DNA of 64,000 bases from Desulfobacteraceae bacterium (GCA_014237395.1 JABZFP010000028.1:585-64584), one strand, 5' to 3'; numbered from the stretch's first letter, positions 39,132 to 59,779 are shown. Notes: generated by a model from the sequence alone, not told the origin. Program-made: numbers and translations.

Positions 39132-39174
39132 CTAATGCGGGTTTAACATAACCCTAACATCTACCGCGTAATTG
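39132..39174 (+). promoter_or_regulatory. candidate Pho box (3 units) and -10, upstream of phoB
   Basis: CTAAT(39132) N6 TTAAC(39143) N6 CTAAC(39154), exact 11-bp phasing; TAATTG at 39169-39174, 10 nt after the last unit. Confidence 0.55.
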
Positions 39175-39912: not shown

Positions 39913-41675
39913 AACGCAAACGCTTGGTCTGGCAGATTTTCCCGTCCTTTCTGTTGATCACCCTCCTATCGATTATCACAGCCATCTGGTTTGCCTCACA
40001 TGCCATGGAGCGGTTCTTTCTGGACCAGACCGCAACAGACCTGACGGACCGCATCACCCTGGTCCGCTACCAGATCGAACCCCACTTTCGGCCGCTGCAG
40101 GCCGATCGCATCGACCGCATTTGCAAAGAGGCCGGCCAGCTTTCTTCGACACGCTTTACGGTCATTCTACCCGATGGCACCGTGGTCGGCGACTCCCAGG
40201 AAAACCCGTCCCACATGGACAACCATGCCGGGCGTCCGGAAATCAACGCGGCCAGGCAGCACGGATCCGGGCAATCGGTTCGCTATAGCAAAACCCTCGA
40301 CCGCCGTTTGATGTATGTCGCCGTGGCCGTCACCGTGGATAACGAACTGACGGGCGTCGTTCGAGCGGCCTTCGCGGTCAACGCCCTGGATGAACGGATG
40401 GGCGCCATTCGCTGGCGGATGGCTGGGGGCGGCGCGCTTATCGCCATTCTGGTGGGATTGATCAGCCTTCTGGCAGCGCGCAAAATAAGCCATCCCATCG
40501 AAAGGCTCAAGCAGGGCGCCGATGCCTTTGCCGCCGGCAACCTGACCGACAAGCTGGCCCTGCCCGAAACCGAGGAACTGGCCGGATTGGCGCAGGCCAT
40601 GAACCAGATGGCCGCCCGCCTGGACCGCCGGATCGCCAGCGCCATCCAACAGAAAAACGAGCTGGAAACCGTTCTGTCGAGCATGCGCGAAGGGGTGGTG
40701 GCCATCGACAGCAATGAAGCCATCATGAGCATGAACCCGCTGGCCGCGGAAATGTTTGAGTGCGATCGCGAACGCGCGAAAAACCGCAGTATTCAGGAAA
40801 TAGTCCGCAACCTCGCCCTGCAGAATTTCGTGGCCAAGGCGGTGAAGGCGGAAGATTCGCTGGAAGACGATATTCCGTTCTTCCGCCAGGCGGAACATAT
40901 CCTCAATATCAAAAGCTCGCCCATCGTCGACAGCAATGAAAAACGCATCGGCACCCTCCTGGTCATGACGGACGTCACGCGGTTGCGGCGCCTGGAACAC
41001 ATGCGGCGCGACTTTGTGGCCAATGTCTCCCATGAAATCAAAACGCCCCTGACCGCCATCAAAGGCTATGTGGAAACCCTTTTCAATCGCGAAGTGGATT
41101 CAGCGGAAGACACCCACCGGTTTCTGGGAATCGTCATCAAACATGTCAATCGGCTGGAATCCATTGTGGAAGACCTTCTCGCCCTGTCGCGCATCGAACG
41201 GGAAAATTTCCGGGAAGCGCTCAATCTCGCCACGGTGCGACTGGGGAACATTTGCCAGACCGCCATCCAGGTCTGCCATAAAAATGCCGAAGCCAAACAC
41301 ATTGCCATCGACGTCCAATGCGGGGAAGACTTGCAGGCCACCGTAGATGCCACCCTGCTGGAGCAGGCCATTGTCAATCTTCTGGACAACGCCATCAAAT
41401 ACAGCGAGGACGGCAGTCGTGTCGAGATCAGCGCCGAAAACCGCGATGGCATGACCGCCATCCATATCCGGGACTATGGCTGCGGGATCGCCCAGCGCAA
41501 TCTTTCACGCCTGTTCGAGCGATTTTATCGGGTGGACAAGGCCCGCAGCCGCCAACTGGGCGGGACGGGGCTGGGGCTGGCCATTGTCAAGCATATCGTG
41601 CAGGCGCACGAGGGTGAAGTAACGGTGGAAAGCCGGCTGGGAGAGGGAAGTACGTTTTCGATTTATCTGCCCTGA
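39909..41675 (+). CDS. phoR: phosphate regulon sensor histidine kinase
   Basis: 588 aa. 2 TM, HAMP, PAS, H-box [18 protein letters not shown] boxes ([19 protein letters not shown]). Confidence 0.75.
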
Positions 41676-41688: not shown

Positions 41689-42093
41689 TCACTTGGAACG
41701 ATCTTTGGCCACCTGCCGCACGAATTTGACCCCGATGCCGTCATCCGTAAGGCGCACGACTTTTCCCCTGACTTTAATTGGATCGGCGTTGCGGGACGGG
41801 GTGAAATTGAGCAAGATCTCCTGCCCAACATCAAACGGTTCGCGCGTTTCGATAAACACCCCGGTCGGGCTGATGTTCTGGATGGTATCACGGTAGGCAC
41901 GGTCGTGGGTGGCATAATAAACGGTCAGGCTGGTTTCGCGACGTTTATGGCGGCGTGTGCGGCGGGTTTGCTTTTTTTCGAGTTCCTCGAGCATGGCCAA
42001 CTGCTCTTCAAATGTCATATCCGTGATCAGTTCGAACAACCGGAAGGTAACATCCGTCGGGCTGATTTGCTTTTTGGTTTCCGCCATCGTCAC
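41689..42093 (-). CDS. PilZ domain protein
   Basis: 134 aa. RRHKRRE...DTIQNISPTGVFI (RxxxR ... D/NxSxxG c-di-GMP motifs). Confidence 0.75.
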   Translation of the reverse strand: MTMAETKKQISPTDVTFRLFELITDMTFEEQLAMLEELEKKQTRRTRRHKRRETSLTVYYATHDRAYRDTIQNISPTGVFIETREPFDVGQEILLNFTPSRNADPIKVRGKVVRLTDDGIGVKFVRQVAKDRSK

Positions 42094-42173
42094 GCTCCTC
42101 CATAGTTCTCGCTTGCATGCCGTTCCGCCAGCCAGCCACAGGGATTCAGCGCTGCAACCCTGTCAATCTGATT

Positions 42174-42202
42174 TTATTAGTCGGATCACCGGTTATTGTC
42201 AA
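42174..42202 (-). promoter_or_regulatory. sigma70-like promoter for the PilZ gene
   Basis: The minus strand reads tttttttttTTGACA-ataaccggtgatccgac(17)-TAATAA. -35 at 42202-42197, -10 at 42179-42174, with a T-tract UP-like element upstream. Confidence 0.5.
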
Positions 42203-42566
42203 AAAAAAAATGGGCGGCTAAGGGGCGGGCAGCACCGGCATCCGTTAATGCGAAATGCGACGCGGGGGATGACCGGCAGCGCTGGTGGCCCCATTGACCA
42301 CCCCCTCGTTCGCGAATTCAATCGACCCCACCACTCATCAATACCCGATCGCGTGTCAATTAACACGATCCTCACACACCTCTAACATCTTCCATATGGA
42401 CCGGTGGGTATGCATGGCATCAGATGCCCCTGAAGGTATTGCAACGGCATTCCGACACCATGGATCCGACCGTCCTGCGGGAGGGCCGATTCGCGCTCAC
42501 GATATCCATCGCATCTATCCATGCGAAGCACCTAAGCTCATCTGCTGTGTCAGAAGGACTTTTCGT

Positions 42567-42734
42567 ATGACATCTGCCATTTTGTGTATCGCCATAACAG
42601 GCGTCGTCGTGGCCATAGCCGCAACGTTGCGCCGCCGGAAGTTGTCGGCGGAAACCGTTCTCCTCCTGTCCGTGCTCGAATCACTACAGACCTCGCCGCA
42701 ATCCGTCGACCCCGGGGATTCACGTTCAGCGTAA
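42567..42734 (+). CDS. possible small membrane protein (55 aa)
   Basis: Internal ATG of ORF 42285..42734 preceded by aagga. One TM helix (AILCIAITGVVVAIAATL). Weak call. Confidence 0.25.
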   Translation: MTSAILCIAITGVVVAIAATLRRRKLSAETVLLLSVLESLQTSPQSVDPGDSRSA

Positions 42735-42833
42735 CGGCTATGCCCCCCGCCCGATGAATTTCAATTCTTCACACCGCCCCATGATACCCCGTTATCACGA
42801 GCAGGGGCCGCCGTCCTCACCATTCCCCGATAA

Positions 42834-42888
42834 TTCACAAAATTAGAACTTGAATTTAACACCGGCGGAACAATTCGGGCCCATAAAT
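42834..42888 (+). promoter_or_regulatory. candidate Pho box (4 units) and -10, upstream of the 809-aa/PSD-like/Lgt-like operon
   Basis: TTCAC(42834) AGAAC(42845) TTAAC(42856) GGAAC(42867), exact 11-bp phasing; ATAAAT at 42883-42888, 11 nt after the last unit; ATG at 42933. Confidence 0.5.
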
Positions 42889-42932
42889 GGCAGTGATCAT
42901 TTTATGAATCCGTTTTTTGGTGGAGGAAGTGA

Positions 42933-45362
42933 ATGCCATCGACCGCTGCCCAGTTAAACGTGATCCGCCCCCAAGCCTTTCGTCCCCTTTCAGCGAAGGC
43001 GGTACCATCGATGGCGGATCGATTGGGGATCGACGCCCGCACGGCGGAATCGCTGGCGCGAACCCTCCCATTTTCCGGGGAAGATACGACCGCCGGTGTC
43101 GAGAACGAAATTCAGGCCTCCGTGGCGGGAGAAGCCTCCCGGGTGGATCTGCCCATGTCCATCGCGGCTTCCGAAGTCTTTGACCATATTCGTCAGATGG
43201 CCCGGGCGGGTGATACGTCGCCGAAACTAAAAGAGGACCTGGACGCCTACCTCGATCACAACACCGATCGGATATGGGAGAACAGCTGGGTCCAATTCCC
43301 CGAAGACCGGCTATCCGCCTTCGCCCGCAAGGTTTTCGAAAACGATCTGCGATCCGACAAGCAGGATCTTGACAGTCCTTTGCGACAGGATGCGGACCGT
43401 TTCCATTGCCACCGCAACGGAGAGCCGCATATCCGCGTTCCAATCAGCTACCTGATGAAACTGGCTTTGGCCGAAGCCGTCAGCGATCCCCAACTGGATC
43501 CAATGATCCGGACGGAAGCCCGTCGCATGATGGCACACTTTATCAGTGACAACACCTCCCCGGAAACCCATTCGTTTCATACGCCCACCCTCAGGCCCGG
43601 GCCGCGGATGGGGGCCGCCATCGCCGATGAGACCGCCCAACGCCTCCTGTTTTCCCAACTTCTCGTGATGTATGCAAACCGACGGTTCAACCTGCTGTCC
43701 GACGGCCAGCGTGCCCTGATCTATATGGCACCGCATCCGCCACAGCGGCAAAAGCGACTGAACGAACTCATTCCGGATGCCTTTTACCGGGAGCTTTTTA
43801 TGAGCCCGTGCCTTTCCGGATGGGATCGGGGCGAGGAAAAGCAGGCCTACATGGCCCACTGCCATAAAGTGCTTTCCCGCAGTCAGCTCAACGCCGTCAA
43901 AAAGCTCCGGGACGCCGGTATCATCACGCGCAATCTCGTGGTTCTGCCCAATCTGTCCAATACCAGTCTGGCCAACAACGGGACCCATATGAGCATCGGC
44001 AGCCGCATGCTCAGTCGGCAACTGAAAGCGTCCCACCCGGGATTCGGTGCCCGCGAGGAAAAATGGCTCGGCGATCTCGCCATCAAAATTCTGGAGCATT
44101 TTCTCCCGCTGTTCGTCGGGACCTACAGCGGGGCACCGTATCGGCTCGATTTCAGTGACATGCATCCCGAAAAGGCGCTCAGTTTTCTGCCCCATGAGCT
44201 TCATGAAATCCATTTGCGTATGATCTGGCGGCGCTGGAAAAAGAAAGCCCGCATGAAGATCCTGGGGAAATCCATCACCCCCTTCGGGCCGGCCTGGATC
44301 GATCGTTCGCTCGCCCGTTGCCTGCAATTGAAGGGCGACTTTGTGACCGACTTCCGCCTGGTCGACTACATGGCCTGCCTGATGAGCACCCATACCGCAG
44401 GCGCCTTGAACGGCACCGTCGGCAATGATGCCAAATTGAAAGCCGACCTGACGTCGTTGGGAACGTTTCACACAACCATGCCGCTCTACCTGCTGTATCG
44501 GCTGCGGCGCTATGACGAACTTGGCTTTTCGGGTTTTGAAGGACGCCACTACAGTCAATTTGAAAGCATCCAGAACGATCTGGGACACGCCGCAAGCCTC
44601 CAGGTGCTGCTGTCGGCGCTGTCCTTTCACTATATTTTTCGCGACGGCATTCACCATGTCGACATTCCGGACACCCCCCGGATTGAAAGTGAGCGTCGGC
44701 AGATTTTTTTTGCCGCGGCCATTGGCATTCCAACCGTCTATATCCACCGCCAGAGCCGCAACCGTTTTCTGCAGCGGCTTCTCCGGGATATTCCGGAAAC
44801 CCGCTTCAGCCATCGTTATCCGGGATATGTCCGGGTCAAGATCAAGGCCTACCAACGGGCCCTGGTGCGCATCATCCGACGGGATGCGCCCGAACTGATC
44901 GAACAATTTCAGGCCGGGACATGCCTGGATGACCTGGAAGCCCGCCTGGCGTCTCCCCGGGACGGTGCTGCCGGTCGGCTGACCCGCGGCATCCTGAACG
45001 AAGCTGGTGCCAAAGCCCCCTTGCAACTTCCCGCGGAAGCTTTCAACCAGGCCGGCGAACAATATTATCGCGAAACACTGCGCCGCAAGCATATGGAGGA
45101 AGGTCTCGATTTGTTTGAAAAGGCGCTGGCCACGATCGACGCCCCCGCCATCTGGCGGCAAGGTCGTTATAACCGCCCCCTCTACCAGCTTCTCCGGGGA
45201 AGAAATGCAGGGGAATTTCTGGCGCGCCAGCGACAGGCCCTGCTGTTCGAAATGGCCTCGGAGGAAACACTGGCCAAACTCATTCATTTATTCATCCTGA
45301 CGACCTTGAAAGCACGCCACGAAGATGCCTCGCAGGCTTCGCCCTCCGGGGAAAAGGACTGA
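42933..45362 (+). CDS. large hypothetical protein (809 aa), no recognisable domain
   Basis: RBS ggaggaag 4 nt upstream. Long clean ORF; its stop overlaps the next start (TGATG). First gene of a 3-gene operon. Confidence 0.8.
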   Translation: MPSTAAQLNVIRPQAFRPLSAKAVPSMADRLGIDARTAESLARTLPFSGEDTTAGVENEIQASVAGEASRVDLPMSIAASEVFDHIRQMARAGDTSPKLKEDLDAYLDHNTDRIWENSWVQFPEDRLSAFARKVFENDLRSDKQDLDSPLRQDADRFHCHRNGEPHIRVPISYLMKLALAEAVSDPQLDPMIRTEARRMMAHFISDNTSPETHSFHTPTLRPGPRMGAAIADETAQRLLFSQLLVMYANRRFNLLSDGQRALIYMAPHPPQRQKRLNELIPDAFYRELFMSPCLSGWDRGEEKQAYMAHCHKVLSRSQLNAVKKLRDAGIITRNLVVLPNLSNTSLANNGTHMSIGSRMLSRQLKASHPGFGAREEKWLGDLAIKILEHFLPLFVGTYSGAPYRLDFSDMHPEKALSFLPHELHEIHLRMIWRRWKKKARMKILGKSITPFGPAWIDRSLARCLQLKGDFVTDFRLVDYMACLMSTHTAGALNGTVGNDAKLKADLTSLGTFHTTMPLYLLYRLRRYDELGFSGFEGRHYSQFESIQNDLGHAASLQVLLSALSFHYIFRDGIHHVDIPDTPRIESERRQIFFAAAIGIPTVYIHRQSRNRFLQRLLRDIPETRFSHRYPGYVRVKIKAYQRALVRIIRRDAPELIEQFQAGTCLDDLEARLASPRDGAAGRLTRGILNEAGAKAPLQLPAEAFNQAGEQYYRETLRRKHMEEGLDLFEKALATIDAPAIWRQGRYNRPLYQLLRGRNAGEFLARQRQALLFEMASEETLAKLIHLFILTTLKARHEDASQASPSGEKD

Positions 45363-46444
45363 TGGCGACGCCTTGCATGGACACGCCCATCGCCTCTTCC
45401 GAAAGGCACAATCACATGCGCATGCTTGCCCGACCTGAGCATCAATACATCCAGCGTCATACCGGCCGCGTGGTCACCGAACGCTTGTTTTCCGACCGGA
45501 TCATCCACCTGCTCTATGCCCATGCCCGGGAAAATGCGCCACGGGTGTTCGACATGCTGACCTCCCGCCGCGCCAACGACGGGTATGCTCTCTGGCAATA
45601 CGACTTGCCGACACGCCGCTCACCGGCCGCGGTTACACGACTGATCCGGCAACTCGGCATCTGCCTGGAAGAGTGTCTGGCGCCGGAGGCCTTGACGTCG
45701 CCGCGCCGTTTGTTCGAACGGCAGATTCGATTCTGGCAGCACCGCCCCATGGCGAGCGACAAATGCCACATCGTGTCACCCGCCGACGCCCGCATGCTGG
45801 TGGGTGCGTTTGCCAGCCAGTCCCAACTTTTTCTGAAGGAGAAGTTCTTCGATTATCAGGACCTGCTGGGTGCGGATAAACCGAAATGGCTGAATGCTTT
45901 CCGGGGGGGACAGTTTGCCATTTTTCGTCTGACGCCGGAGAAATACCACTATAACCATCTCCCCGTATCCGGTCATGTCCGCGACATCTATGAAATCCAG
46001 GGAGTTTACCATTCCTGCAATCCAGGAGCCGTCGTCCGCATGGTAACCCCTTACTCCAAGAACCGGCGGGTCGTCACCATTATCGACACCGATGTCCCCA
46101 ATGGCAGCCATATCGGCCTGGTGGCCATGATCGAGGTCGTGGCGCTGATGATCGGCGACATCGTGCAATGCTACAGCGCACATCATTACGATGCCCCGCG
46201 CGCGGTTGCGCCGGGAATGTTTCTCAAGCGCGGGCAGCCGAAAAGTCTCTACCGCCCGGGCAGTTCGGTCGACGTCCTTCTTTTCCAGAAAAACCGCGTC
46301 CGCTTCTGTGACGACATCCTGTCCAATCAGCACCACCTTTCAGCCCACAGCCGTTTTTCTTCCGGCTTCGGACGCCAGTTGGTCGAAACCGATGTCCGGG
46401 TGCGTGAAACCATCGCCATGAAAGGAACTCATGATGGCGGATGA
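45362..46444 (+). CDS. phosphatidylserine decarboxylase-like protein
   Basis: 360 aa. PSD-family blocks (SPADARMLVG, FRLTPEKYHYNHLPVSG, VAMIEVVALMIGDI) and a GSS self-cleavage-type site in YRPGSSVDVLLF. Confidence 0.7.
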   Translation: MATPCMDTPIASSERHNHMRMLARPEHQYIQRHTGRVVTERLFSDRIIHLLYAHARENAPRVFDMLTSRRANDGYALWQYDLPTRRSPAAVTRLIRQLGICLEECLAPEALTSPRRLFERQIRFWQHRPMASDKCHIVSPADARMLVGAFASQSQLFLKEKFFDYQDLLGADKPKWLNAFRGGQFAIFRLTPEKYHYNHLPVSGHVRDIYEIQGVYHSCNPGAVVRMVTPYSKNRRVVTIIDTDVPNGSHIGLVAMIEVVALMIGDIVQCYSAHHYDAPRAVAPGMFLKRGQPKSLYRPGSSVDVLLFQKNRVRFCDDILSNQHHLSAHSRFSSGFGRQLVETDVRVRETIAMKGTHDGG

Positions 46445-47489
46445 ACTGTTTGTAGCGGTTTGCAGTCTGTTTACGATGATCTTGTTTCACTGGTCCTTTC
46501 ACCACCTGCCGCAGGAGAAATGGCAGTTCCTGGCCGCTGTTCCAACCTGCAAAGGTCCCGGCAACTGCTGGCAAGGCATCAATCTGACCTATTACGGTTT
46601 TTTCAACGCCACCGCCTATACCCTGGCCTGCATGCTGGTGATTTTTCTCACCGCTGCGGCCGGCATTCCGATAGGGTATACGCTGGCACTGCTGGTGATC
46701 ATTCTGGGCGTCTGCATGCCGGGATCCCGCATCGTCGCCCGCGTGGTCGAAAAAAAGCCGCATACCTTCAGTGTCGGCGGCGCTTTTTTTATCGGGATTC
46801 TGCTGACGCCCCCCCTGTTGATGCTGACCCAGCCCCTGGCAGTGCGCTGTTTCCAAGCCACCGTCGATCCTGTGGTTTTTCTATCGGCGGTGGCGATCGC
46901 CTATTGCTGGGGCGAAGGCATCGGACGGCTGGCCTGCATCAGTTTCGGCTGTTGCTATGGCAAACCGCTGTCCGAGGTCCATCCTCTCTTGCAACGGCTT
47001 TTTCACCGTTGGCATTTCATTTTCCACGGTCCCACCCGTAAAATCGCCTATGCCCATCATCTCGACGGTGTGCAGGTTGTGCCTGTGCAGGCGATTACCG
47101 CCGTACTCTACAGCCTGACCGCCCTGGTCAGCCTGTATGCCTTTCTCAACAACTATTTCCGAACGGCCATGCTGCTGTCCCTGATCGTCAGTCAATTATG
47201 GCGGTTTGCCTCGGAGTTCCTGCGGGCTGATTACCGGGGCGAACGCCGTATCAGTGCTTACCAGTATATGAGTTTGTTGGCCGTCGCGGTTGCGCTGGTA
47301 TTGGCCGGCATGCCTTTCGACGCACCGTCGCTGCCGGTTGCACACATCATCCTGGGCTTAACGGTCCTCTGGCACCCGGCCATGCTGCTTTTTCTGCAGG
47401 TGTTGTGGGTCGCCGCCTTCATCTACACCGGGCGCAGCAGCGTCACCGGTGCGACGATTGAATTTCACGTGCACCAGCATCTCACGTGA
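46431..47489 (+). CDS. prolipoprotein diacylglyceryl transferase (Lgt)-family membrane protein, atypical
   Basis: 352 aa, polytopic. GRLACISFGCCYGKP (Lgt GRxGxxxxGCCYG-type block) and WRFASEFLRADYRG (Lgt RFxxEFxRxD block). Overlaps the PSD-like gene by 14 nt. Confidence 0.65.
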   Translation: MMADELFVAVCSLFTMILFHWSFHHLPQEKWQFLAAVPTCKGPGNCWQGINLTYYGFFNATAYTLACMLVIFLTAAAGIPIGYTLALLVIILGVCMPGSRIVARVVEKKPHTFSVGGAFFIGILLTPPLLMLTQPLAVRCFQATVDPVVFLSAVAIAYCWGEGIGRLACISFGCCYGKPLSEVHPLLQRLFHRWHFIFHGPTRKIAYAHHLDGVQVVPVQAITAVLYSLTALVSLYAFLNNYFRTAMLLSLIVSQLWRFASEFLRADYRGERRISAYQYMSLLAVAVALVLAGMPFDAPSLPVAHIILGLTVLWHPAMLLFLQVLWVAAFIYTGRSSVTGATIEFHVHQHLT

Positions 47490-47537
47490 GATTCACCCTC
47501 CGCGCAGTGTTAAGCCTGATGCAACCCCCTTGAAAGG

Positions 47538-47750
47538 GGCTTGAAAACTGTTTTTGACGTTATGGGGTTTTTCTTCCCTTTGTCCCGCGCCGAGCATCGG
47601 CGGTGCGGACGGGAAAAAGCGCGCGGACTGTTTGAGCCCGCCGCAAAGCGGGTGAGTTTCTGCGCGCGCCGGCCGTAGCGATGACGCGCAGGTTTGAGCG
47701 GGGAACGGCGTTTTCTTTTGCTTCGTTTCTGCTGACGGCGTAAAAAGTTC
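47538..47750 (+). repeat. GC-rich dispersed repeat, copy 2
   Basis: gcttgaaaactgtttttgacgttatgg...gtcccgcgccgagcatcggcggtgcggacgggaaaaagcgcgcggactgtttgagcccgccgcaaagcgggtgagtttctgcg...ttcttttgcttcgtttctgctgacgg. Confidence 0.8.
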
Positions 47751-47757
47751 TGAAGCC

Positions 47758-47826
47758 GTCACTCCCGCGCAGGCGGGAGTCCATACCCCATTGAAATGAA
47801 TGGATCCCAGCCTGCGCGGGGATGAC
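47758..47826. repeat. GTCAT...ATGAC double-hairpin element (copy 2)
   Basis: gtcactcccgcgcaggcgggagtcca ... tggatcccagcctgcgcggggatgac; same architecture as 856-935. Confidence 0.7.
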
Positions 47827-47933
47827 AAAAAAATTATTTCAACGATTTTTTAAGGAATAATCCCTGCCGATCGCAGGAAGAGGGGTCTCGGGAGCAGGTA
47901 CCAAAGCAACGATAGCATGGATAAGGCGGACAA

Positions 47934-48536
47934 CTACGGCGCGGTGGTATCGACCCGGCGATCCTTCTTCCTCTGGATCGCATCCCGCCGACGCGCCCGC
48001 CATCGCCTGCCGATCACCAGGCTCGCCAGCAGCACCATGCAGAGCAGCGCATACTTCTGGATCGATCGCCCTTCGAGGATCAGCCGCTGAAAGACCTCGC
48101 CGAAAAAATAACCGCCGGTTCCGATGACCGTGGCCCATACCATGGCACTGGCGGCACTGAGCAGGGTGAACGTGCACACACGGCATCGCCCGGACCCAAG
48201 CAGAAAAGGGATCACCGCGCGCATGCCGTAAATAAATCGATAGAGCAGGATGACAATACTTTGCCGGTGGTTCAGCCAGCGGCCGGCACGGTCGAGTTTC
48301 CGCTGCCACGCCGCCCGGTGACCCAAAAGACAGGCGCCTTTGAGGCGCCCCAACTGAAAAAAAAACTGATCGCCGGCAAAGGCGCCGGCGGCCGAAGCCA
48401 ACAAGACCGCTTTAAAGTCCAGCAGGCCCTGCTGGACAAGAACGGCCGCGATCAGCAAGACCGTTTCACCCTCGAGCACGGCACCGATGAAAATGGCCGT
48501 GTAGCCGTATTGGGCGACAAAGGATTCCACGCTCAT
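47934..48536 (-). CDS. DedA family membrane protein
   Basis: 200 aa. YGYTAIFIGAVLEGETVLL and GDQFFFQLGR motifs. Confidence 0.85.
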   Translation of the reverse strand: MSVESFVAQYGYTAIFIGAVLEGETVLLIAAVLVQQGLLDFKAVLLASAAGAFAGDQFFFQLGRLKGACLLGHRAAWQRKLDRAGRWLNHRQSIVILLYRFIYGMRAVIPFLLGSGRCRVCTFTLLSAASAMVWATVIGTGGYFFGEVFQRLILEGRSIQKYALLCMVLLASLVIGRRWRARRRDAIQRKKDRRVDTTAP

Positions 48537-48579
48537 CGCGTTGTGCGATGGATCGCGTCAGGCGGCATTACCCCCCGCT

Positions 48580-48789
48580 TCAAGATAGATGACCGTGGAT
48601 CAAATCGAGGGTGGGAACAGCATGCTCCGCTTGCTGTCGTGTTATTTCCGTGGCACTCAAACGCAGCGCCATCATCATTTCGGTATGGTCAAAGAGCTCA
48701 ATCCGCTCCGGATTGACCCGAAACACCTCATGCGTATCGGGATGAAAAATATAAATCTCGTCGTTCAACAGCAAATACTTTTCCGTCAT
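48580..48789 (-). CDS. small hypothetical protein (69 aa)
   Basis: ORF 48580..48954 trimmed to MTEKYLLLNDEIYIF behind aagga. Sits 13 nt after the zinc-ribbon gene. Confidence 0.5.
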   Translation of the reverse strand: MTEKYLLLNDEIYIFHPDTHEVFRVNPERIELFDHTEMMMALRLSATEITRQQAEHAVPTLDLIHGHLS

Positions 48790-48802
48790 TGAAATTTTCC
48801 TT

Positions 48803-48985
48803 TTAGGACCGTCTTGGCGGCAGATGCAGAGGATAACCATTATCGACCGCCAGTGCGGCGCTGAACTCCAGATCGCAGGCCAGTCGCCGCAAATAGGCCA
48901 TGCGTTTGTCGCACACGCGGCACTGGCTGTTGTTCTTATCTTTGTGCAGGCCATGGCACTGACGACAAGGATTGAGTCGATTCAT
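48803..48985 (-). CDS. small zinc-ribbon protein (60 aa)
   Basis: ORF 48803..49081 trimmed to MNRLNPCRQCHGLHKDKNNSQCRVCDK (CxxC-X12-CxxC) behind a strong RBS aaggagg. Confidence 0.6.
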   Translation of the reverse strand: MNRLNPCRQCHGLHKDKNNSQCRVCDKRMAYLRRLACDLEFSAALAVDNGYPLHLPPRRS

Positions 48986-49131
48986 CGCAACCTCCTTGAT
49001 GTACAACCCCCAAGATGAGGCGTCGGTTGGGTTTATCGGGTAAATGGGGCGGGGGGCTTTCCCATGACCCTCAGCATGCAAGAAGGCCTCCCGTTGCCGA
49101 TAAGGTTTATCGATGGCTTAAACCGTTTGAA

Positions 49132-50556
49132 TTAGCGCCGAATGACCATGCGGTTAGAATCAAATGATGGTGTCATCTTCCGGACCACGGGTTGGATGCC
49201 ATTGCCTGCCCTAAAGCGCCGCAAGCGCTCCGGCCGGGCCGGGCGGCGGCCGTCGAAAAAATCACAGGCCTGATAATAGTGCAGGTCCTTCAGCCACAAT
49301 TTTATGAATCCGGCATCTTTCCACCATCGGCGCAGGGATTTAAACGGGTGCCGCACCAAATCCTGAAGGGGCCCCCCCAGTTCCGAAGGATCACGAAAAC
49401 ACTCCCATTCACAGGCATAGCACGCCCTGCTGTCACCACCAGGCATCGTCGGCCGATCGCTAAAAACGCCCAGATCTTCTTCACCGCGATATCCGCAGGG
49501 ATAGGTATGTCCTGTAACAGCGTCAATAAAAAAGAAATCCTTGCCGCCACGGCATGGGTATCCGCGTTCGCCACGGCCGAATTGCCGTTTGAGCGCGTCG
49601 AGCGCGAAGAGGGGTGTAAAAATCCTCAGACGCGCGCGATTTTCCCTTACGGATTGACCGAGCACATCAAAAAGGTGGGCTTTTTCCCGGGAGGAAAACG
49701 ACACGATGGCCGATGTCGCCGTGGCGCCATAGACCGCATTCAGCTCACCGCTGCCACCATCATCCGCGATACTCATGGGATAGCAGACATTCGCGGTCGA
49801 AAAGCCCATCCCGGCCACAAATTGAAAAAAGCGGGAAAGCCCTGAATGGAGACGTTCACGAAAGACCGCGACCGGGACGCCCTTGGCCCCAGGAACGCCG
49901 TTCTCAAGTACGGGAATGCTTCCGGGACCATCGAGGTTGCGATTGATACCCAGGTTGGCGGAGGGGAACAGGCCGTAGCGGTGAAAAATGGGCAGGGCCC
50001 GTTCGATGCCGCGGATGATTCCGGGAAACCCCCGCATTTTTTCGTGGGTGGCCGGATCCGCGGAATCGATACTGATCCAGAAATTGCGCAGAGGGGTGGC
50101 CGCCAGGGTTTCGGCCAGCCGATGGATGCGGTCGGGAAAATCCGGATTGTCGGGCGACCGGAAGACAAAACCGTTGGTTCCCGTCCGGATGTAGGCGATC
50201 CCTGCGGCACCAGCATGATCGATCAGCGTCACGAGATCCTGCAGCACGAGCAGCGGCTCGCCACCGGTAAAGGAAACAGCGGCGATACCCCGCTGGGCAG
50301 CGGCATCGATCATGCGCTTGACGTCATCCAGCGGCAGGCTGTGCCGCGGAAAGTGTTCGTTGATGTTCATCCCGCATTGCGGACAGGTGGCGTTGCACCG
50401 ATCGGTCAATTGGATCACCAACTGACCCGGCAAATTGCCGTGGCGGAGAAGATGGAGCACGTGTCGTAGTTTCATGGATGTTTTTCGAATAGACGGCTGC
50501 TGTAGGTGCTCAGCGGCGGCATTGGAGACGGCATATCCGTTCTGGTAAAGTACCAT
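49132..50556 (-). CDS. radical SAM protein with Cys-rich C-terminal extension
   Basis: CNATCPQCG (CxxxCxxC) plus the GGEPLL SAM motif. C-terminal cysteines (CRGG...CGYRG...CYACEWEC) are suggestive of an auxiliary cluster. The start is uncertain (50556 or MKLRHVL at 50475). Confidence 0.8.
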   Translation of the reverse strand: MVLYQNGYAVSNAAAEHLQQPSIRKTSMKLRHVLHLLRHGNLPGQLVIQLTDRCNATCPQCGMNINEHFPRHSLPLDDVKRMIDAAAQRGIAAVSFTGGEPLLVLQDLVTLIDHAGAAGIAYIRTGTNGFVFRSPDNPDFPDRIHRLAETLAATPLRNFWISIDSADPATHEKMRGFPGIIRGIERALPIFHRYGLFPSANLGINRNLDGPGSIPVLENGVPGAKGVPVAVFRERLHSGLSRFFQFVAGMGFSTANVCYPMSIADDGGSGELNAVYGATATSAIVSFSSREKAHLFDVLGQSVRENRARLRIFTPLFALDALKRQFGRGERGYPCRGGKDFFFIDAVTGHTYPCGYRGEEDLGVFSDRPTMPGGDSRACYACEWECFRDPSELGGPLQDLVRHPFKSLRRWWKDAGFIKLWLKDLHYYQACDFFDGRRPARPERLRRFRAGNGIQPVVRKMTPSFDSNRMVIRR

Positions 50557-50569
50557 TCCAACGCAGGCA

Positions 50570-53032
50570 TCAGAAACCGGCCACCCATTGAAACCTTTCT
50601 CCGGCGGAGATGGTCTGGTAAGACTCCCAGGTCTTCAGGAAAGCCGCATCGAACGAGCGCTCTTCCATGGATCGCCGGGCCGCCCGTCCCATGGCCCGCC
50701 GTTGTCGGGGATTCGACAGGATGTCGTTGAGCGCCGCCGCCAGAGCCTCCACATCGTTGCCGGGAACGACGCGTCCTGTCGTGTCGGGAAGCATGTTTTC
50801 GCAGGGGCCGCCCTGATCCGACACCACCACCGGCAGCCCGGAGGCCTGGGCTTCCAGGACCACATTGCCGAACGTATCCGTCGTACTGGGGAACACGAAG
50901 ATGTCTGCCGAAGCGTAGGCTTTGGCAAGATCGTCGCCTGCAAGAGCACCGGTAAAGGTGCACGGCAAATCGCTTAGCAGCGCCTTCATTTCGTTCAAAT
51001 AGGGGCCATCGCCCACAATCACCAGATGGGCTTGGGCCTGTCTGGCATAAAGAAGGCGGAAAGCGTCCCCGAGAACCGCCAGGTTTTTTTCTTTGGAGAT
51101 CCGCCCGACATACAACAGTTTGGTCGATGCGGCCACCCCGTAGGATTGCTCGAAAAAGCCGTTTCGTTTTTCCGGTGAAAACCGTTCCGTATCGATGCCA
51201 CGGGGATACAAAGCGATCTTGTCGCCATTGATCCCGCGCGCGATCAGTTCCTGACGCGTATCTTCGGACGGCGCATAGATCAGGTCCATCTGGTCGTAGT
51301 ACCAGACGACAAATTTCCAGGTGAGCTCCGCCATAGCGTCATCACCGGTGAGAAACTGGGCATATTGCGGCAGCTGGGTATGGTAGGTGCCGCAGATCGG
51401 CAGTTTCAAGATGCGCGCAATGGCCAGAGCGGCCAGACCGATCGGACCCGGGGTGGCGGAATGGATGCGGGTGAAACCCTGTTCGTAGCAGTACCGCAGC
51501 ATTTCCATCAGCGGGGGATAAAACAGCTTCTGCTCAGGGTATTCGGGCAGGTCATACGTGCCGATCGGCTGGAAGGCCTTGACCCCCGGTTGGGACAGAT
51601 GCGGATCTTCATTGCAGGTGATCACCTGCAGCGACTTGCCGTGCCGCAGGGCCACCTGCACCTGCTGTTGCAGGGTCAGGGCCACGCCGTTGGTGTCATA
51701 GAAAGTGTCCGTAAAATGACCGACCCGCAGCGTGTCGGCGGTCCCGGCATTGGCCGGGGACGGAACACCGAAATGGTCTCGAACGGCATGCGTAAAGTCA
51801 CGATCCTTTGAAAAGAGAGAAAACGCGATAAAGTAAGGGGCCAGCAGGCCATATAGTCCACCGGCCGATCCAAGTGTATGGAAGATATTGAAGACATTTC
51901 CACCGAGCAGATGATTCATGGCATGATTGGCAAAATTGATCAGGGCCTGGTTGGACACCTGGTTCACGAAATCGAACCACCCGATTTCCGGCGGGAGATC
52001 ATTCTGTGCGCCCGTCAGGGCCAAGCGCTTGAATTGCCGGTCATCTTTCAACAGACTGGCGGTGGTATGCCGCAGCAGACCGATAAGATCATCGGAAACC
52101 GGTTCGGGCCGGGTGCGCCGATGGGCGTTTAGAAAACAATAGACCTTGTCGATCAGGCGGCCATCATGACCCTTGCCGTCACAGCCGTTGGGCCGCAGCG
52201 ACCGGTCGAGATATTTGATCAGAAGATCTTTTCCCTGGAAACGTTCCAGGTTGAATTTGCTCCGGTAGTACTGATAGGCGATACTGTAAAAATTGTGCGC
52301 CATGGTTTCCGGGAGGGAGGGCTGTCGTACGGCCCGGCTTTGCCCGTTTTCAAGGCCCGCCAGACCGTCCTTCAGATTCCCGGCACCGGGAATTTCAGTG
52401 AAGGTCCGCGCAATGTTCAGGGAACTGTGGTCATCCGATCCGCCGGTGATATTTTTTTCCCACGGCTCCGGAAAGGCCGGATCGATGCCGTGGCGGTCGC
52501 TTAGCGCCTCGATCATATCCGGCGAGAGGGCCTTCAATACCGCTTCGAGCCCCTCATTGGCCACATCGTTGCGGGCCCCGTTCATCTCGAAATTCTTGAA
52601 GAGCAGCAGCATTTTCTCGAAGTGCTCGATGCTCAACCGATCATTGACACCGTAAAGGGGATGTGCCACCACGTGCACGATCCCCTGCGCCCGCAGATAG
52701 TCCACCAAATAAAACACGTTGTCCCGGCACTGCTGGATGTCGGCATGCTGGCGCTCGGTGATGTCCAGTGCCAGCACGTGCAGCTTGCATCGATCCTCGG
52801 GGAAATAGGTGGTAATCTCTTCGCTAATAAAGGTGTGCGGCAAATGGGCGATTGCCAAAGCGCCCTCGATCCGGTTATGATCCGAAATCGTCACGTGTGT
52901 CATGCCACGCGCAAGGGCAATCCGGTAGATATCCTGCGGCTCTGTGAAGCTTTCCGGGCAACCGATTTTTTTCAATACCCAGGCCGAAGGCCGCTTGGAG
53001 TATTTGGAATGAACATGAAGGTCAACACGCAT
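50570..53032 (-). CDS. PHP-domain phosphoesterase fused to GT4 glycosyltransferase (820 aa)
   Basis: N-terminus MRVDLHVHSKYS...TISDHNRIEG (PHP metal-binding His/Asp). C-terminus GRISKEKNL...FPSTTDTFGNVVLEAQASGLPVVVS (GT4 E-x7-E). Confidence 0.85.
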   Translation of the reverse strand: MRVDLHVHSKYSKRPSAWVLKKIGCPESFTEPQDIYRIALARGMTHVTISDHNRIEGALAIAHLPHTFISEEITTYFPEDRCKLHVLALDITERQHADIQQCRDNVFYLVDYLRAQGIVHVVAHPLYGVNDRLSIEHFEKMLLLFKNFEMNGARNDVANEGLEAVLKALSPDMIEALSDRHGIDPAFPEPWEKNITGGSDDHSSLNIARTFTEIPGAGNLKDGLAGLENGQSRAVRQPSLPETMAHNFYSIAYQYYRSKFNLERFQGKDLLIKYLDRSLRPNGCDGKGHDGRLIDKVYCFLNAHRRTRPEPVSDDLIGLLRHTTASLLKDDRQFKRLALTGAQNDLPPEIGWFDFVNQVSNQALINFANHAMNHLLGGNVFNIFHTLGSAGGLYGLLAPYFIAFSLFSKDRDFTHAVRDHFGVPSPANAGTADTLRVGHFTDTFYDTNGVALTLQQQVQVALRHGKSLQVITCNEDPHLSQPGVKAFQPIGTYDLPEYPEQKLFYPPLMEMLRYCYEQGFTRIHSATPGPIGLAALAIARILKLPICGTYHTQLPQYAQFLTGDDAMAELTWKFVVWYYDQMDLIYAPSEDTRQELIARGINGDKIALYPRGIDTERFSPEKRNGFFEQSYGVAASTKLLYVGRISKEKNLAVLGDAFRLLYARQAQAHLVIVGDGPYLNEMKALLSDLPCTFTGALAGDDLAKAYASADIFVFPSTTDTFGNVVLEAQASGLPVVVSDQGGPCENMLPDTTGRVVPGNDVEALAAALNDILSNPRQRRAMGRAARRSMEERSFDAAFLKTWESYQTISAGERFQWVAGF

Positions 53033-53226
53033 CGGCGATTCCTTTTCTGTACGATCTCGATTGGGGTCCTTATTCGTTCCATCAAATCGCCTTGAACTAT
53101 TTCGCTGTTAAGCTCAAATGAGCCTCTGTTTAGGAATTCATTAGCAAAAGAAAAACCGTCGTATTGCGCGCACCTGCCCTCTGACGAAAAGTAAAAAATT
53201 ATAAAAATCAGCTGATTATCGAAACC

Positions 53227-53270
53227 CTAACGCATTTCTAACGTTCGTCTAACAATACTTGCCCTATATG
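53227..53270 (+). promoter_or_regulatory. candidate Pho box (3 units) and -10, upstream of phoU
   Basis: CTAAC at 53227, 53238 and 53249 (perfect 11-bp phasing); TATATG at 53265-53270, 11 nt after the last unit. Confidence 0.6.
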
Positions 53271-53379
53271 TACGGTCACACGACGAAATCACCGTCACGA
53301 GTCAAACCTCAGCGGCAACACGTTGTGGGGAATGAAACACCGCGGCTTATCCGCTGGGAAACAACGAAAAGGGACGCCC

Positions 53380-54036
53380 ATGGCCAGACACTTTCATAAA
53401 GAACTTGAAAAAATCAAAAAAATGATCCTGTCGCTCGGCGCGATGGTCGAAGAGCGCGTGCGGCGGATTGCAACCGCCATCACCGAACGGGATGGCGACC
53501 TGGCGCAGGAACTCATCCGCTCGGATTTTGAAATCGATGAAATGGAAGTGGAAATCGAGGAGGAGTGCCTTAAGATCATGGCGCTGCATCAACCGGTGGC
53601 CATCGACTTGCGCTTTCTCGTCGCCGTCATCAAAATCAATAACGACCTGGAGCGCATCGCCGATGAAACGGTCAATATCGCCCAGCGCATCAAAACCATG
53701 ACAAAAGACAGCCCGGCCAGCTTTTTTTTCGACTACGACCCCATGAGCGCGGAAGTCGAAAACATGCTGAAACTGAGCCTCGATGCCCTAGTCAACATGG
53801 ACGTGGACACCGCCTTCAAGGTCGTTACCATGGATGACGATGTCGACAGCATCCACCGCCAAGTATACCAGCTCATCTGCGATGAAATGGCCCATCATCC
53901 GGACCAGATGGCCTTTTTGATCAACTTTTATCTGATTTCACGCCATCTGGAACGTATCGGCGATCACGCCACCAACATCGCCGAAGAAGTGATTTATCTG
54001 ATCGAGGGCGAAATCGTCCGGCATGCCGATTATTAA
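53380..54036 (+). CDS. phoU: phosphate transport system regulator PhoU
   Basis: ORF 53323..54036 trimmed to MARHFHKELEKIKK. Two PhoU repeats (NNDLERIADE / SRHLERIGDH). Confidence 0.9.
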   Translation: MARHFHKELEKIKKMILSLGAMVEERVRRIATAITERDGDLAQELIRSDFEIDEMEVEIEEECLKIMALHQPVAIDLRFLVAVIKINNDLERIADETVNIAQRIKTMTKDSPASFFFDYDPMSAEVENMLKLSLDALVNMDVDTAFKVVTMDDDVDSIHRQVYQLICDEMAHHPDQMAFLINFYLISRHLERIGDHATNIAEEVIYLIEGEIVRHADY

Positions 54037-54228
54037 CACCTTGATCTTCCCCGATTCTATCGCGATCTGGCGTCGCCTGAGATCCAGCATCTTTTGATCC
54101 GGGGAATCAATGACGGCGTGAATTCGGGTGTCTCGGGAACCCCGACCGTCTTCGTCAACCATACCCGGATGGTGTCGTTAGGCATCGATGATCTCCGACA
54201 GGCCATCGGCCAAGCGGCCGCGCCATAA
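54037..54228 (+). pseudogene. C-terminal remnant of a DsbA-like thioredoxin-fold protein
   Basis: Own translation, in frame directly after the phoU TAA: HLDLPRFYRDLASPEIQHLLIRGINDGVNSGVSGTPTVFVNHTRMVSLGIDDLRQAIGQAAAP*. G(V)xGTPTxF(I/V)N is the DsbA-family C-terminal block. There is no start codon and no CxxC part. Confidence 0.45.
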
Positions 54229-54304: not shown

Positions 54305-54490
54305 CACGCCCCCTTTGTCCCGCGCTGAGCATCGACGCGGTGGACGGAAAAAAGCGCGCGGACTGTCTGAGCCCGCCGAAAGGCGGGTGAGTTTCCGCGG
54401 GCTACGGCCGCCGCGGCGACGCGCAGGATGAAGCGGGACACGGGCGCTTTCTTTTGGTTCCGTTTTCTTTCGCGTGAAAGAAAATGAACA
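54305..54490 (+). repeat. GC-rich dispersed repeat, copy 3
   Basis: ccctttgtcccgcgctgagcatcgacgcggtggacggaaaaaagcgcgcggactgtctgagcccgccgaaaggcgggtgagtttccgcg...ggacacgggcgctttcttttggttccgttttctttcgcgtgaaagaaaatgaac. Confidence 0.8.
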
Positions 54491-54621: not shown

Positions 54622-54664
54622 GTAACCGGCCCCTAACACGTTTCTAACACGCCCCCACTATCTA
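54622..54664 (+). promoter_or_regulatory. candidate Pho box (3 units) and -10, upstream of pstC
   Basis: GTAAC(54622) CTAAC(54633) CTAAC(54644); TATCTA at 54659-54664, 10 nt after the last unit. Confidence 0.6.
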
Positions 54665-54728: not shown

Positions 54729-56120
54729 ATGATGTCGCCATCGGTCATATTTATCGCCATTCTGCTATTGATGTCGGCTGCCTATTACGCGGGGAGAAAA
54801 CGCGCCTTGGCGGTGGCGGGCAGTCGCGCCGGTCTGGCGCGGATGCATTCGCGCCCCACATATTATGGCTTGTTGACCGCCATGTGGTGCGGTATTCCGG
54901 CGCTGCTGGTATTCAGTTCCTGGTCCGTTTTCGAATCCGGCATCATCACCCATCTGGTTGTCGCCGGACTGCCCGATGCCATCCGCGACCTGCCGGCCGA
55001 CCGCCTGAATCTGGTTGTCAACGATATCCGGAACCTGGTCAGCGGCAATATCGTTTCCGCCGATATCGATCAGACCATGCGATCCGCGGCGGACCACTAT
55101 CTGGAACTCCAGGCGATCAGTCATGCGTCCCTGGCCGTGGTCATCCTGGCAATGACCATGGCGGCCATCGCTATCCTCATGCGTATCATCGCGCCCGGTC
55201 TGCGGGCACGCAATCAGGTTGAAAGCATCATCAAGTGGATTCTGATCGCCTGCTCCACGATCGCGATTTTTACGACCATCGGAATCCTGCTGTCGGTCCT
55301 GTTCGAGGCCATTCGTTTTTTTGAAAAAATTTCCATCACGGAATTCTTATTCGGCTTGAAGTGGAGTCCCCAGATGGCCATCCGGGCCGACCAGGTAGGC
55401 TCTTCGGGCGCTTTCGGCGCCGTTCCGGTGTTTGCCGGCACGCTGATGATCTCCGCCATCGCCATGGTGGTGGCCGTTCCGGTTGGCCTGCTGTCCGCTA
55501 TCTACCTTTCTGAATACGCCGATCGCCGTTTTCGAGCGGTTGCCAAGCCGCTGATGGAAATCCTGGCCGGCATCCCAACCGTCGTTTATGGCTTTTTTGC
55601 CGCCCTGACCGTGGCCCCCCTTATCCGTGAGACCGGTATCGGATTGGGGCTCGATGTGTCCTCCGAAAGTGCTCTTGCTGCCGGTTTGGTGATGGGCATC
55701 ATGATCATTCCTTTCGTCTCTTCGCTGTCCGACGACGTCATCAACGCCGTGCCCCAGGCCATGCGGGACGGCGCCTATGGGTTAGGCGCCACCAAGTCCG
55801 AGACCGTCAAACAGGTCGTGCTGCCGGCGGCTTTGCCCGGCATCGTGGGGGGTGTGCTGCTGGCCGTCTCCCGTGCCATCGGAGAGACCATGATCGTCGT
55901 CATGGCGGCCGGGTTGGCGGCCAACCTGACCGCCAATCCGCTGAAAACCGTCACCACCGTCACCGTCCAAATTGTTACGCTCCTGGTGGGTGATCAGGAA
56001 TTCGACAGCCCCAAGACCCTGGCCGCTTTTGCCCTGGGCCTGATTTTGTTTATCGCGACCCTGATCCTTAACGTCATCGCCCTCCATGTGGTGCGCAAAT
56101 ACAGGGAACAATATGAATAA
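54729..56120 (+). CDS. pstC: phosphate ABC transporter permease PstC (long type)
   Basis: 463 aa polytopic permease. The EAA-loop region AMRDGAYGLGATKSETVKQVVLPAALPGI is typical of PstC. Confidence 0.85.
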   Translation: MMSPSVIFIAILLLMSAAYYAGRKRALAVAGSRAGLARMHSRPTYYGLLTAMWCGIPALLVFSSWSVFESGIITHLVVAGLPDAIRDLPADRLNLVVNDIRNLVSGNIVSADIDQTMRSAADHYLELQAISHASLAVVILAMTMAAIAILMRIIAPGLRARNQVESIIKWILIACSTIAIFTTIGILLSVLFEAIRFFEKISITEFLFGLKWSPQMAIRADQVGSSGAFGAVPVFAGTLMISAIAMVVAVPVGLLSAIYLSEYADRRFRAVAKPLMEILAGIPTVVYGFFAALTVAPLIRETGIGLGLDVSSESALAAGLVMGIMIIPFVSSLSDDVINAVPQAMRDGAYGLGATKSETVKQVVLPAALPGIVGGVLLAVSRAIGETMIVVMAAGLAANLTANPLKTVTTVTVQIVTLLVGDQEFDSPKTLAAFALGLILFIATLILNVIALHVVRKYREQYE

Positions 56121-57405: not shown

Positions 57406-57437
57406 CGATCGGCATTTTTTATGATGAAAACATGATT

Positions 57438-57480: not shown

Positions 57481-57553
57481 GGGCAACGTGCACGGTTACC
57501 CTAACTTGACCATAATGGTTTTTTTATTGATTAAAATTCTTCAGGAGGAACAC

Positions 57554-59772: not shown

Positions 59773-59779
59773 TCACACT

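Follow-up and report, generated by a model that had tools for sequence, protein, structure and literature searches.

The 64,000-nt stretch of DNA analysed here, referred to as the window, comes from a Desulfobacteraceae bacterium (GCA_014237395.1 JABZFP010000028.1:585-64584), and all coordinates are window positions. Between phoBR and phoU-pstCASB it carries two convergent operons, considered here as a candidate locus for membrane-lipid remodelling under phosphate control. The plus-strand operon encodes an 809-residue protein that we call A809, a relative of phosphatidylserine decarboxylase (PSD-like) and a relative of the diacylglyceryl transferase Lgt (Lgt-like). The minus-strand operon encodes a PHP domain fused to a GT4 glycosyltransferase domain (PHP::GT4), a radical S-adenosylmethionine (SAM) enzyme, a 60-aa protein, a 69-aa protein and a DedA-family protein. 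Within each operon the ends of neighbouring genes are close together or overlap. Genes were called from a listing of open reading frames (ORFs) and by profile searches against Pfam and NCBIfam, and every gene named in a preliminary description of this DNA was found where that description had placed it. The main genes are as follows.

39220-39912, plus strand: phoB (Pfam Response_reg and Trans_reg_C)
39909-41675, plus strand: phoR (Pfam HAMP/PAS/HisKA/HATPase_c)
42933-45362, plus strand: A809, 809 aa, without a Pfam or NCBIfam match
45362-46444, plus strand: PSD-like, start possibly at 45416 or 45422 (Pfam PS_Dcarbxylase, 125.8 bits)
46431-47489, plus strand: Lgt-like (Pfam LGT, 38.9 bits, cut-off 24.9)
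47934-48536, minus strand: DedA/VTT-family membrane protein, last gene of its operon (Pfam VTT_dom, 47.5 bits, cut-off 33.9)
48580-48789, minus strand: 69-aa protein, an ORF kept in relatives
48803-48985, minus strand: 60-aa zinc-ribbon-like protein (CxxC...CxxC), an ORF kept in relatives
49132-50475, minus strand: radical SAM enzyme, the ORF extending to 50556 (Pfam Radical_SAM, 51.9 bits)
50570-53032, minus strand: PHP::GT4, 820 aa (Pfam GT4 families; PHP by fold and motifs)
53323-54036, plus strand: phoU, probable start 53380 (Pfam)
54729-59625, plus strand: pstC, pstA, pstS and pstB (Pfam)

The preliminary description had called A809 an orphan, which proved wrong. At 90% identity its homologues fall into more than 2,900 clusters, of which almost all are some 810 aa long and named 'hypothetical'; at 50% identity, 877 matches came from a profile search over 1.84 billion representatives. 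A scan of one genome per species places relatives in at least 347 species, spread over Desulfobacterales, Syntrophobacterales, Syntrophales, Geobacterales and Desulfuromonadales, with a few in Nitrospirota and SAR324. The protein is soluble and was modelled with AlphaFold2 (AF2) at a pLDDT of 81 and a pTM of 0.87. The only coherent Foldseek matches of the model are to GshF/GshA gamma-glutamylcysteine ligases, from four organisms, with probabilities of 0.4-0.95. Reading by eye, we found that the A809 motifs GVENE, NNGTHMS and FEGRH resemble GLERE (E27, E29), SGVHYN (H150) and IEVRS (E328, R330) of GshA; the ExE, GTH and ExR elements lie on predicted strands and come in the same order as in GshA. 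Pfam (searched with divergent members as well), NCBIfam, phmmer against the Protein Data Bank (PDB) and a 37-sequence profile against the PDB all returned nothing, and in an all-against-library profile search the best 150 matches were family members or fragments, with no bridge to a named family. We propose that A809 is a distant, glutamate-cysteine-ligase-like, ATP-dependent carboxylate-amine ligase, an assignment that is tentative because no sequence method backs the fold match.

The other two proteins of this operon belong to known families. PSD-like aligns to Escherichia coli PSD (7cnw), and its invariant SPAD, YHYNH and RPGSS motifs correspond to the autocleavage triad and Gly-Ser site of pyruvoyl enzymes; D142, H196/H199 and G300-S301 are invariant, so that the Asp-His-Ser triad and the Gly-Ser cleavage site are both kept. 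Its score against the NCBIfam equivalog is 123 bits for a cut-off of 371; because it stays below, we take it as a member of the family, which does not imply true PSD activity. Lgt-like is matched by the Pfam family profile and reaches 34.8 bits against the NCBIfam Lgt equivalog, whose cut-off is 334; phmmer and profile searches against solved Lgt were empty. Its invariant motifs are GRLACISFGCCYG and WRFxSEFLRxDxRG. By hhalign, in an alignment that is weak (E 0.12) though its register makes sense, the first falls on GRLGNFINGELWG of E. coli Lgt and keeps Arg at R143 and Gly at G154; the second (WRFxSEF) presumably corresponds to the R239/E243 motif, a mapping that we assume for a region outside that alignment. 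The canonical catalytic signature of Lgt (H103, R143, N146, E151, G154, R239, E243) is not complete in Lgt-like.

In PHP::GT4 the PHP part takes up residues 1-235 (nt 52328-53032) and the GT4 part residues ~441-820 (nt 50573-51712), with a helical linker of low model confidence between them (residues 240-440). The PHP part lies under the Pfam threshold (13.8 bits). Foldseek matches it to the PHP structures 7ug9, 3o0f, 2anu and 2yb1 with a probability of 1.00 (E 3e-6 to 1e-3), and the metal ligands DxHxH, DHN, E72, H85, H124 and GGSDDH are invariant; the modelled fold and the motifs confirm the N-terminal domain as a predicted PHP phosphoesterase. Pfam GT4 families match the other half strongly. 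Its best NCBIfam match is GpgS, the N-acetylglucosaminyl-phosphatidylglycerol synthase, at 146 bits (under the cut-off of 480), an enzyme that glycosylates the phosphatidylglycerol (PG) head group (PMC12713373). Curated models of diacylglycerol (DAG) glycosyltransferases score 49-63 bits, also under their cut-offs, and the solved structures of PimA, PimB', MshA and BshA are near relatives too. The radical SAM enzyme has a CX3CX2C motif and C-terminal Cys clusters; its best solved relative is BlsE, a cytosylglucuronate decarboxylase (E 1.7e-10, common core only), and the subfamily models for BlsE, Tes and MoaA give 24-54 bits against cut-offs of 180-650. DedA has the VTT domain and falls below the UptA and DedA equivalogs.

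To follow these genes in relatives, the window proteins were run by tblastn against 80 systematically fetched species loci, here given L numbers. PSD-like adjoins A809 in 76 of them, and 69 have Lgt-like as well; in most of the rest a contig end interrupts the locus. Within 10 kb of A809, PHP::GT4 occurs in 21 of the 80, always as the same fusion, with identity down to 33-39% in Geobacterales; the radical SAM gene adjoins it in nine of these 21 (eight of Desulfobacterales type and one Desulfuromusa, L074). The order of the two modules varies, being convergent in the window and L005 and divergent in Desulfosarcina alkanivorans (L004) and L007, and in a Trichlorobacter metagenome-assembled genome (MAG; L052) a single contiguous operon runs A809, PSD-like, PHP::GT4, Lgt-like. 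Three genes are confined to a close clade: DedA and the 69-aa protein are found in L005, L008 and L009, and the 60-aa protein in L005 and L008-L011. We regard the 60-aa and 69-aa ORFs as accessory because seven other loci retain the pair of radical SAM and PHP::GT4 genes without them; beyond the close clade this also speaks against a ribosomally synthesized and post-translationally modified peptide built from the radical SAM enzyme and small peptides.

Some loci have further genes or changes. In several Desulfobacterales loci (L002 13626-14000, L004 2849-3298, L012) the gene after Lgt-like belongs to DUF2062; in the Trichlorobacter MAG that place is taken by a 319-aa protein without a Pfam match (L052 16829-17788), and either may be accessory. 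The MAG of L009 has both the radical SAM gene and PHP::GT4 in fragments (16472-19544), through pseudogene formation or through frameshifts in a long-read assembly.

Regulation was studied with a Pho-box matrix trained solely on the phoB, phoU, pstC and pstS promoters of the window. These promoters are marked by a pattern of three 11-bp units (YTHACR-N5), which has 25 matches in the window for 8.2 expected. The sites that concern us are the following.

39132-39164, plus strand: phoB Pho box, three 11-bp units CTAATG/TTAACA/CTAACA, found by pattern search (matrix score 27.3; training site)
42360-42392, plus strand: strong Pho box TTAACA/CTCACA/CTAACA (matrix score 27.2)
42834-42877, plus strand: four-unit Pho-box-like array TTCACA/AGAACT/TTAACA/GGAACA (matrix score 12.6)
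53101-53144, minus strand: four-unit Pho-box-like array CTAATG/CTAAAC/CTCATT/TTAACA (matrix score 11.4)
53216-53259, plus strand: phoU Pho box, four units of CTAACG type (matrix score 31.1; training site)
54622-54654 and 57427-57470, plus strand: Pho boxes in the pst region (matrix)

The box at 42360-42392, with no mismatch to the pattern and 573 bp upstream of A809, is the best site of the window outside the training set; null windows have a mean maximum of 12.5 and a largest value of 20. Closer to the genes, one array lies 56-99 bp upstream of the A809 start and keeps its units 1, 3 and 4 in L005 and L008-L011 (61-96% protein identity), and the other lies 69-112 bp upstream of the PHP::GT4 start and is kept in L005, L008 and L009. 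Even in relatives where protein identity falls to 61-76%, both arrays remain in place and in phase. The four-unit array before A809 that the preliminary description had pointed to is thus real and conserved; it is weak all the same, and the stronger box is the one at 42360-42392. Counting arrays that score at least 16 within 400 bp upstream of a gene across all loci, we found them at A809 in 18 of 84 (1.2 expected) and at PHP::GT4 in 6 of 23 (0.33 expected), an enrichment of about 15-fold for both. Desulfosarcina alkanivorans has arrays at both of its divergent promoters though no pho gene is near.

Two more Pho-box-like arrays were seen in the window. One (59722-59754, score 19.1) lies just ahead of a gene for a MarR-family regulator (59744-60259) downstream of pstB and runs into its start; this gene may be a further member of the Pho regulon. 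The other (13071-13103, score 18.6) overlaps the start of 13089-15221, an ADP-forming acetyl-CoA synthetase-type gene (CoA_binding, Succ_CoA_lig, ATP-grasp_5), and could be due to chance.

Conserved neighbourhood with pho/pst genes in relatives had been named in the preliminary description as a check on its reading, and the linkage is not lost: phoU/pst genes lie within 10 kb of A809 in 20 of the 80 species loci, and some Pho-related gene is near in 24. Arrangements are varied, with the pho/pst genes upstream or downstream, on either strand, of two pst types and in several orders of Desulfobacterota. Against the roughly 1% that we estimate from genome size for a random gene, the linkage is about 25-fold above chance, in independent arrangements. 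In Citrifermentans bremense R1 (L020 10001-19884), phoB-phoR-phoU separate A809 from the genes for PSD-like and Lgt-like; this cultured strain has the tightest Pho linkage among the loci seen. In about 70% of the loci the 10 kb around A809 are free of pho/pst genes, and public annotation calls the products phosphatidylserine decarboxylase and glycosyltransferase, which would suit an accidental neighbourhood of housekeeping paralogues that serve phosphatidylethanolamine (PE) synthesis, lipoprotein maturation and cell-wall glycosylation. We hold this to be very improbable in view of the independent arrangements just described, the enrichment of Pho-box arrays even where no pho gene is near, and scores that all fall far short of what the NCBIfam equivalogs demand of a true PSD or Lgt. 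Judged from promoter arrays and gene neighbourhood, both present here, the predicted Pho link of the locus is real.

A published lipid phenotype can be set beside these genes. DSM 16219, which we take to be the type strain PF2803T of Desulfatibacillum alkenivorans, carries A809, PSD-like and Lgt-like. They are found in L027 (22 kb; SAMN02745216_03986, which is WP_073478016.1, and the adjacent PSD-like gene, WP_073478017.1); the best Pho-like array there, with TATATT after it, stands 59-102 bp before A809. All three genes are also present in Desulfatibacillum strain AK-01 (L090, CP001322.1 697241-719724). There they are preceded by a GAF-ANTAR regulator gene and divergent genes with glutamate-synthase domains, possibly a hint of glutamate supply. 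When limited for phosphate, D. alkenivorans PF2803T replaces PE, PG and cardiolipin almost fully by two lipid classes (PMC11181052). The first consists of glucuronosyl (GlcA) glycerolipids (PMC11181052), and the second of new sulfur aminolipids, tentatively N-butyramide cysteine glycerols (BACys), whose head-group ion is C7H13O3N2S+, m/z 205.064, and for which no genes were proposed (Ding et al. 2024, PMC11181052). We noted that gamma-glutamylcysteine less CO2 is C7H14N2O3S, and that its (M-H)+ of 205.0641 matches the reported ion. The literature searched contained no further paper on BACys lipids or on an Lgt-like enzyme in phosphorus-free lipid synthesis.

The locus is probably, on this comparative evidence, a Pho-controlled one for lipid remodelling, in which phospholipids would give way to phosphorus-free lipids. 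The preliminary description had argued from enzymatic logic (a phosphoesterase, a GT4, DAG transfer and decarboxylation) to lipid remodelling, which fits both the domain evidence and the D. alkenivorans lipidomics (PMC11181052). The substrates, order of steps and products set out below are ones that we infer; the gene content, families, folds, conservation, pho linkage and arrays were observed as described.

In module 1, Lgt-like would move the diradylglyceryl group of PG to the thiol of cysteine or gamma-glutamylcysteine, freeing glycerol phosphate for phosphorus recycling. A809 would join the gamma-carboxyl of glutamate to the amine of cysteine at the expense of ATP. The pyruvoyl enzyme PSD-like would then strip the alpha-carboxyl from the glutamyl unit, as PSD does with phosphatidylserine, to leave 4-aminobutanoyl-cysteine. 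The product would be a zwitterionic thioether aminolipid of BACys type, a stand-in for PE. Each enzyme would thereby account for one feature of the head group: the thioether (Lgt chemistry), the amide (ligase) and the 4-aminobutanoyl end (pyruvoyl decarboxylation).

In module 2, diradylglycerol would arise when the PHP domain cleaves the head group off a phospholipid, and would then be glycosylated by the GT4 domain, probably with glucuronate. The resulting glycolipid would be anionic or neutral, and a glucuronosyl form would stand in for the anionic PG. The radical SAM enzyme may modify the glycolipid and DedA may help to move it.

The full model, with a BACys-type aminolipid from module 1, a glycolipid from module 2 and the two modules travelling together in Desulfobacterota, is in our view somewhat better than an even bet from the comparison of genomes. 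That the three genes make BACys-type lipids comes close to an even chance without quite reaching it. The narrower proposal, in which A809, PSD-like and Lgt-like are the complete pathway for butyramide cysteine glycerolipids and Lgt-like lipidates a small thiol, is put forward tentatively and at rather less than even chances.

All the core genes (A809, PSD-like, PHP::GT4 and Lgt-like) might instead work on one product, either a glycosylated thio-aminolipid or a lipid-anchored low-molecular-weight thiol. The logic would be that of mycothiol and bacillithiol: a GT4 and a phosphatase make a glycoside, the ligase adds cysteine and Lgt-like anchors the result. The Trichlorobacter operon, where PHP::GT4 sits between PSD-like and Lgt-like with overlapping gene ends, speaks for this, as do the matches of the GT4 domain to the MshA and BshA families (88 and 78 bits) and to MshA, BshA and PimA structures; the MshA/MshA2 pattern likewise pairs a GT4 with a phosphatase. 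We nevertheless find a single product unlikely, since in 59 of the 80 loci no PHP::GT4 lies within 10 kb of the three genes, bulk lipid replacement suits Pho control better than redox buffering does, and D. alkenivorans makes separate GlcA and BACys classes with no combined species reported (PMC11181052).

About equally unlikely is a Pho-regulated remodelling of the cell surface in place of bulk lipid, whether an alternative lipoprotein lipidation or a change in exopolysaccharide (EPS) or lipopolysaccharide. All characterised Lgt-family enzymes act on proteins; here Lgt-like lacks the canonical N146, E151 and H103 and is always accompanied by PSD-like and A809, not by lsp or lnt. GT4 enzymes are common in polysaccharide synthesis and NCBIfam returns many EPS matches, with a lipid head-group transferase nonetheless the best match of this GT4; DedA relatives, for their part, include undecaprenyl-phosphate transporters. 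The D. alkenivorans phenotype, moreover, requires genes that are not yet assigned (PMC11181052).

Several points weigh against the lipid-replacement model with its BACys branch. On the regulatory side, the 42360-42392 box sits in a strain-specific insertion, the two promoter-proximal arrays score near the chance maximum for 64 kb, and just 25-30% of the loci are Pho-linked. As for the enzymes, the Foldseek match of A809 to the ligases is weak (E 0.1-1, TM 0.25-0.42), hhalign against E. coli GshA gives a probability of 0.1, and profile searches of PDB sequences are empty. In Lgt-like, N146 and E151 of E. coli Lgt are replaced by invariant Cys169 and Cys174, and H103 by Ile/Val; its chemistry may differ as a result. 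An ATP-dependent ligase has to work in the cytoplasm, whereas in E. coli Lgt the active site is turned towards the periplasm, so that the topology of the pathway is a difficulty. The BACys structure itself is tentative, resting on tandem mass spectrometry (MS2) only (PMC11181052), and isomers share its formula.

The remaining features of the region are listed here.

41689-42093, minus strand: PilZ-domain protein, 134 aa (Pfam PilZ, E 3e-16)
42567-42737, plus strand: small ORF, 56 aa, with one hydrophobic helix; gene status uncertain (sequence reading)
47576-47708, strand not assigned: 133-nt dispersed repeat with a terminator-like hairpin, between the convergent operons (repeat comparison)
54025-54213, plus strand: truncated DsbA-like remnant (tblastn of the L005 DsbA-like protein)

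The PilZ protein is conserved beside the locus in the close clade (tblastn matches in L005 and L008-L011). Between it and A809, a segment of about 550 bp (42215-42790) is absent from L008, a 96%-identical relative, and has no counterpart in any fetched locus; the 56-aa ORF within this segment likewise has no match in other loci. The 133-nt repeat, a GC-rich hairpin followed by a T run, has further copies at 54311-54443 (83%), 27170-27269 (84%) and L005 1509-1622 (copies 83-85% identical); the copies occupy intergenic sites, among them the gap that separates the convergent operons and the one from phoU to pstC. In L005 a DsbA/thioredoxin-like gene lies between phoU and pstC. The window remnant matches residues 50-112, the C-terminal half, of its product at 54% identity, and appears to be truncated and to overlap the end of phoU. 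Directly upstream of the phoB Pho box is a 247-aa ORF without a Pfam match (38310-39053), preceded by genes for a universal stress protein (37438-37872) and a GAF protein (36515-37276). The long leaders gave no match to Rfam families at E up to 0.1 when a riboswitch or other known RNA was sought.

Two other readings of the region were dropped. The term island in the preliminary description is not borne out by composition: G+C is flat at 0.54-0.60 across the region. Because base composition is even, we consider the DNA native; a horizontally acquired island is excluded by flat G+C and skews over 36-60 kb and by the synteny of the genes in relatives. A Pfam GT4-conflict match had prompted a defence-system reading, for which PADLOC gave only the generic similarity of a radical-SAM core to viperins.

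In many anoxic aquifers and sediments with little phosphate, the dominant organisms are Desulfobacterota that reduce sulfate or iron or live in syntrophy. To our knowledge, sparing of membrane phosphorus in this phylum is known just for Desulfovibrio (Agt, OlsF). The locus provides a specific three-gene hypothesis for the sulfur aminolipid class reported in 2024 and is the best candidate yet for its synthesis. If the model holds, a function would be assigned to a large uncharacterised family (at least 347 species), to an Lgt paralogue with an altered active site and to a PSD paralogue. Lgt-like would be the first enzyme of its family to lipidate a small thiol, turning PG directly into a phosphorus-free thioether lipid, and A809 would define a new family of 800-aa ligases that add glutamate. 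Desulfobacterota at large would use a mimic of PE based on sulfur and nitrogen when phosphate is scarce, the genes could serve as markers of phosphorus stress in metagenomes, and a source would be at hand for unknown sulfur/nitrogen lipids in environmental lipidomes.

The preliminary description did not recognise the combination of genes as one already described, and indeed the enzymes are unlike those of any described pathway. As it also stated, known genes for phosphorus-free lipids are absent: Pfam and NCBIfam searches found no BtaAB or OlsBA/OlsF in 41689-53032, and the region's proteins gave no Metallophos match of the PlcP type (calcineurin-like metallophosphoesterase). The betaine lipids of BtaAB and the ornithine lipids of OlsBA/OlsF are likewise Pho-induced, phosphorus-free, zwitterionic replacements of PE; their enzymology is entirely different.

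Module 2 may be compared with the PlcP-Agt pathway, in which a Pho-regulated phospholipase C and a GT4 make monoglucosyl and glucuronic acid diacylglycerol (MGDG/GADG) in SAR11, Rhizobiales and Desulfovibrio alaskensis (Dde_3613). A phosphoesterase, a GT4 and Pho control are common to both, a glycosyl or glucuronosyl diradylglycerol would be expected from both, and PHP::GT4 would put the same logic into one polypeptide. The differences are that PlcP is of calcineurin type and the present domain has a PHP fold, that the activities are fused here, that a radical SAM enzyme is attached in Desulfobacterales, and that this GT4 is nearest to GpgS, not to a curated DAG glycosyltransferase model. GpgSDF, which makes glucosaminyl-PG in Pseudomonas aeruginosa, likewise has a GT4 for lipid head groups in an operon with a putative lipid flippase (PMC12713373). 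It differs in that the match is far under its cut-off, no deacetylase is present here, the GpgSDF product retains phosphorus, and its operon has not been described as Pho-regulated.

For module 1 the comparison is with single enzymes. Psd is of the same family as PSD-like, with the same triad and Gly-Ser site, and the proposed reaction would also remove an alpha-carboxyl beside a free amine on a lipid head group; PSD-like differs by its distance from the equivalog, an N-terminal extension and a proposed substrate that is a gamma-glutamyl unit and not phosphatidylserine. Lgt shares with Lgt-like its Pfam family, the R143 and G154 equivalents and the proposed transfer of diacylglyceryl from PG to a thiol with release of glycerol phosphate. 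It differs at the two invariant Cys positions and at H103, and the acceptor proposed here would be a small molecule or lipid head group, not a lipobox protein. Glutamate-cysteine ligase (GshA and the N-terminal domain of GshF) gives A809 its weak fold match and has the ExE/GxH/ExR motifs in the same order; A809 has no detectable sequence homology to it, exceeds it by 300 residues and carries a helical domain at its C-terminus.

The D. alkenivorans lipids are a close parallel to the locus as a whole: the three genes stand behind a Pho-like array, the two lipid classes would match the two modules, and the head-group formula is that of decarboxylated gamma-glutamylcysteine. The difference is that the phenotype comes without assigned genes, that the link made here is a proposed one, and that the published structure is tentative and does not state a thioether. 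Systems that replace phospholipids under Pho induction are already known as a kind; what is new, in the literature we searched, is the link to BACys lipids.

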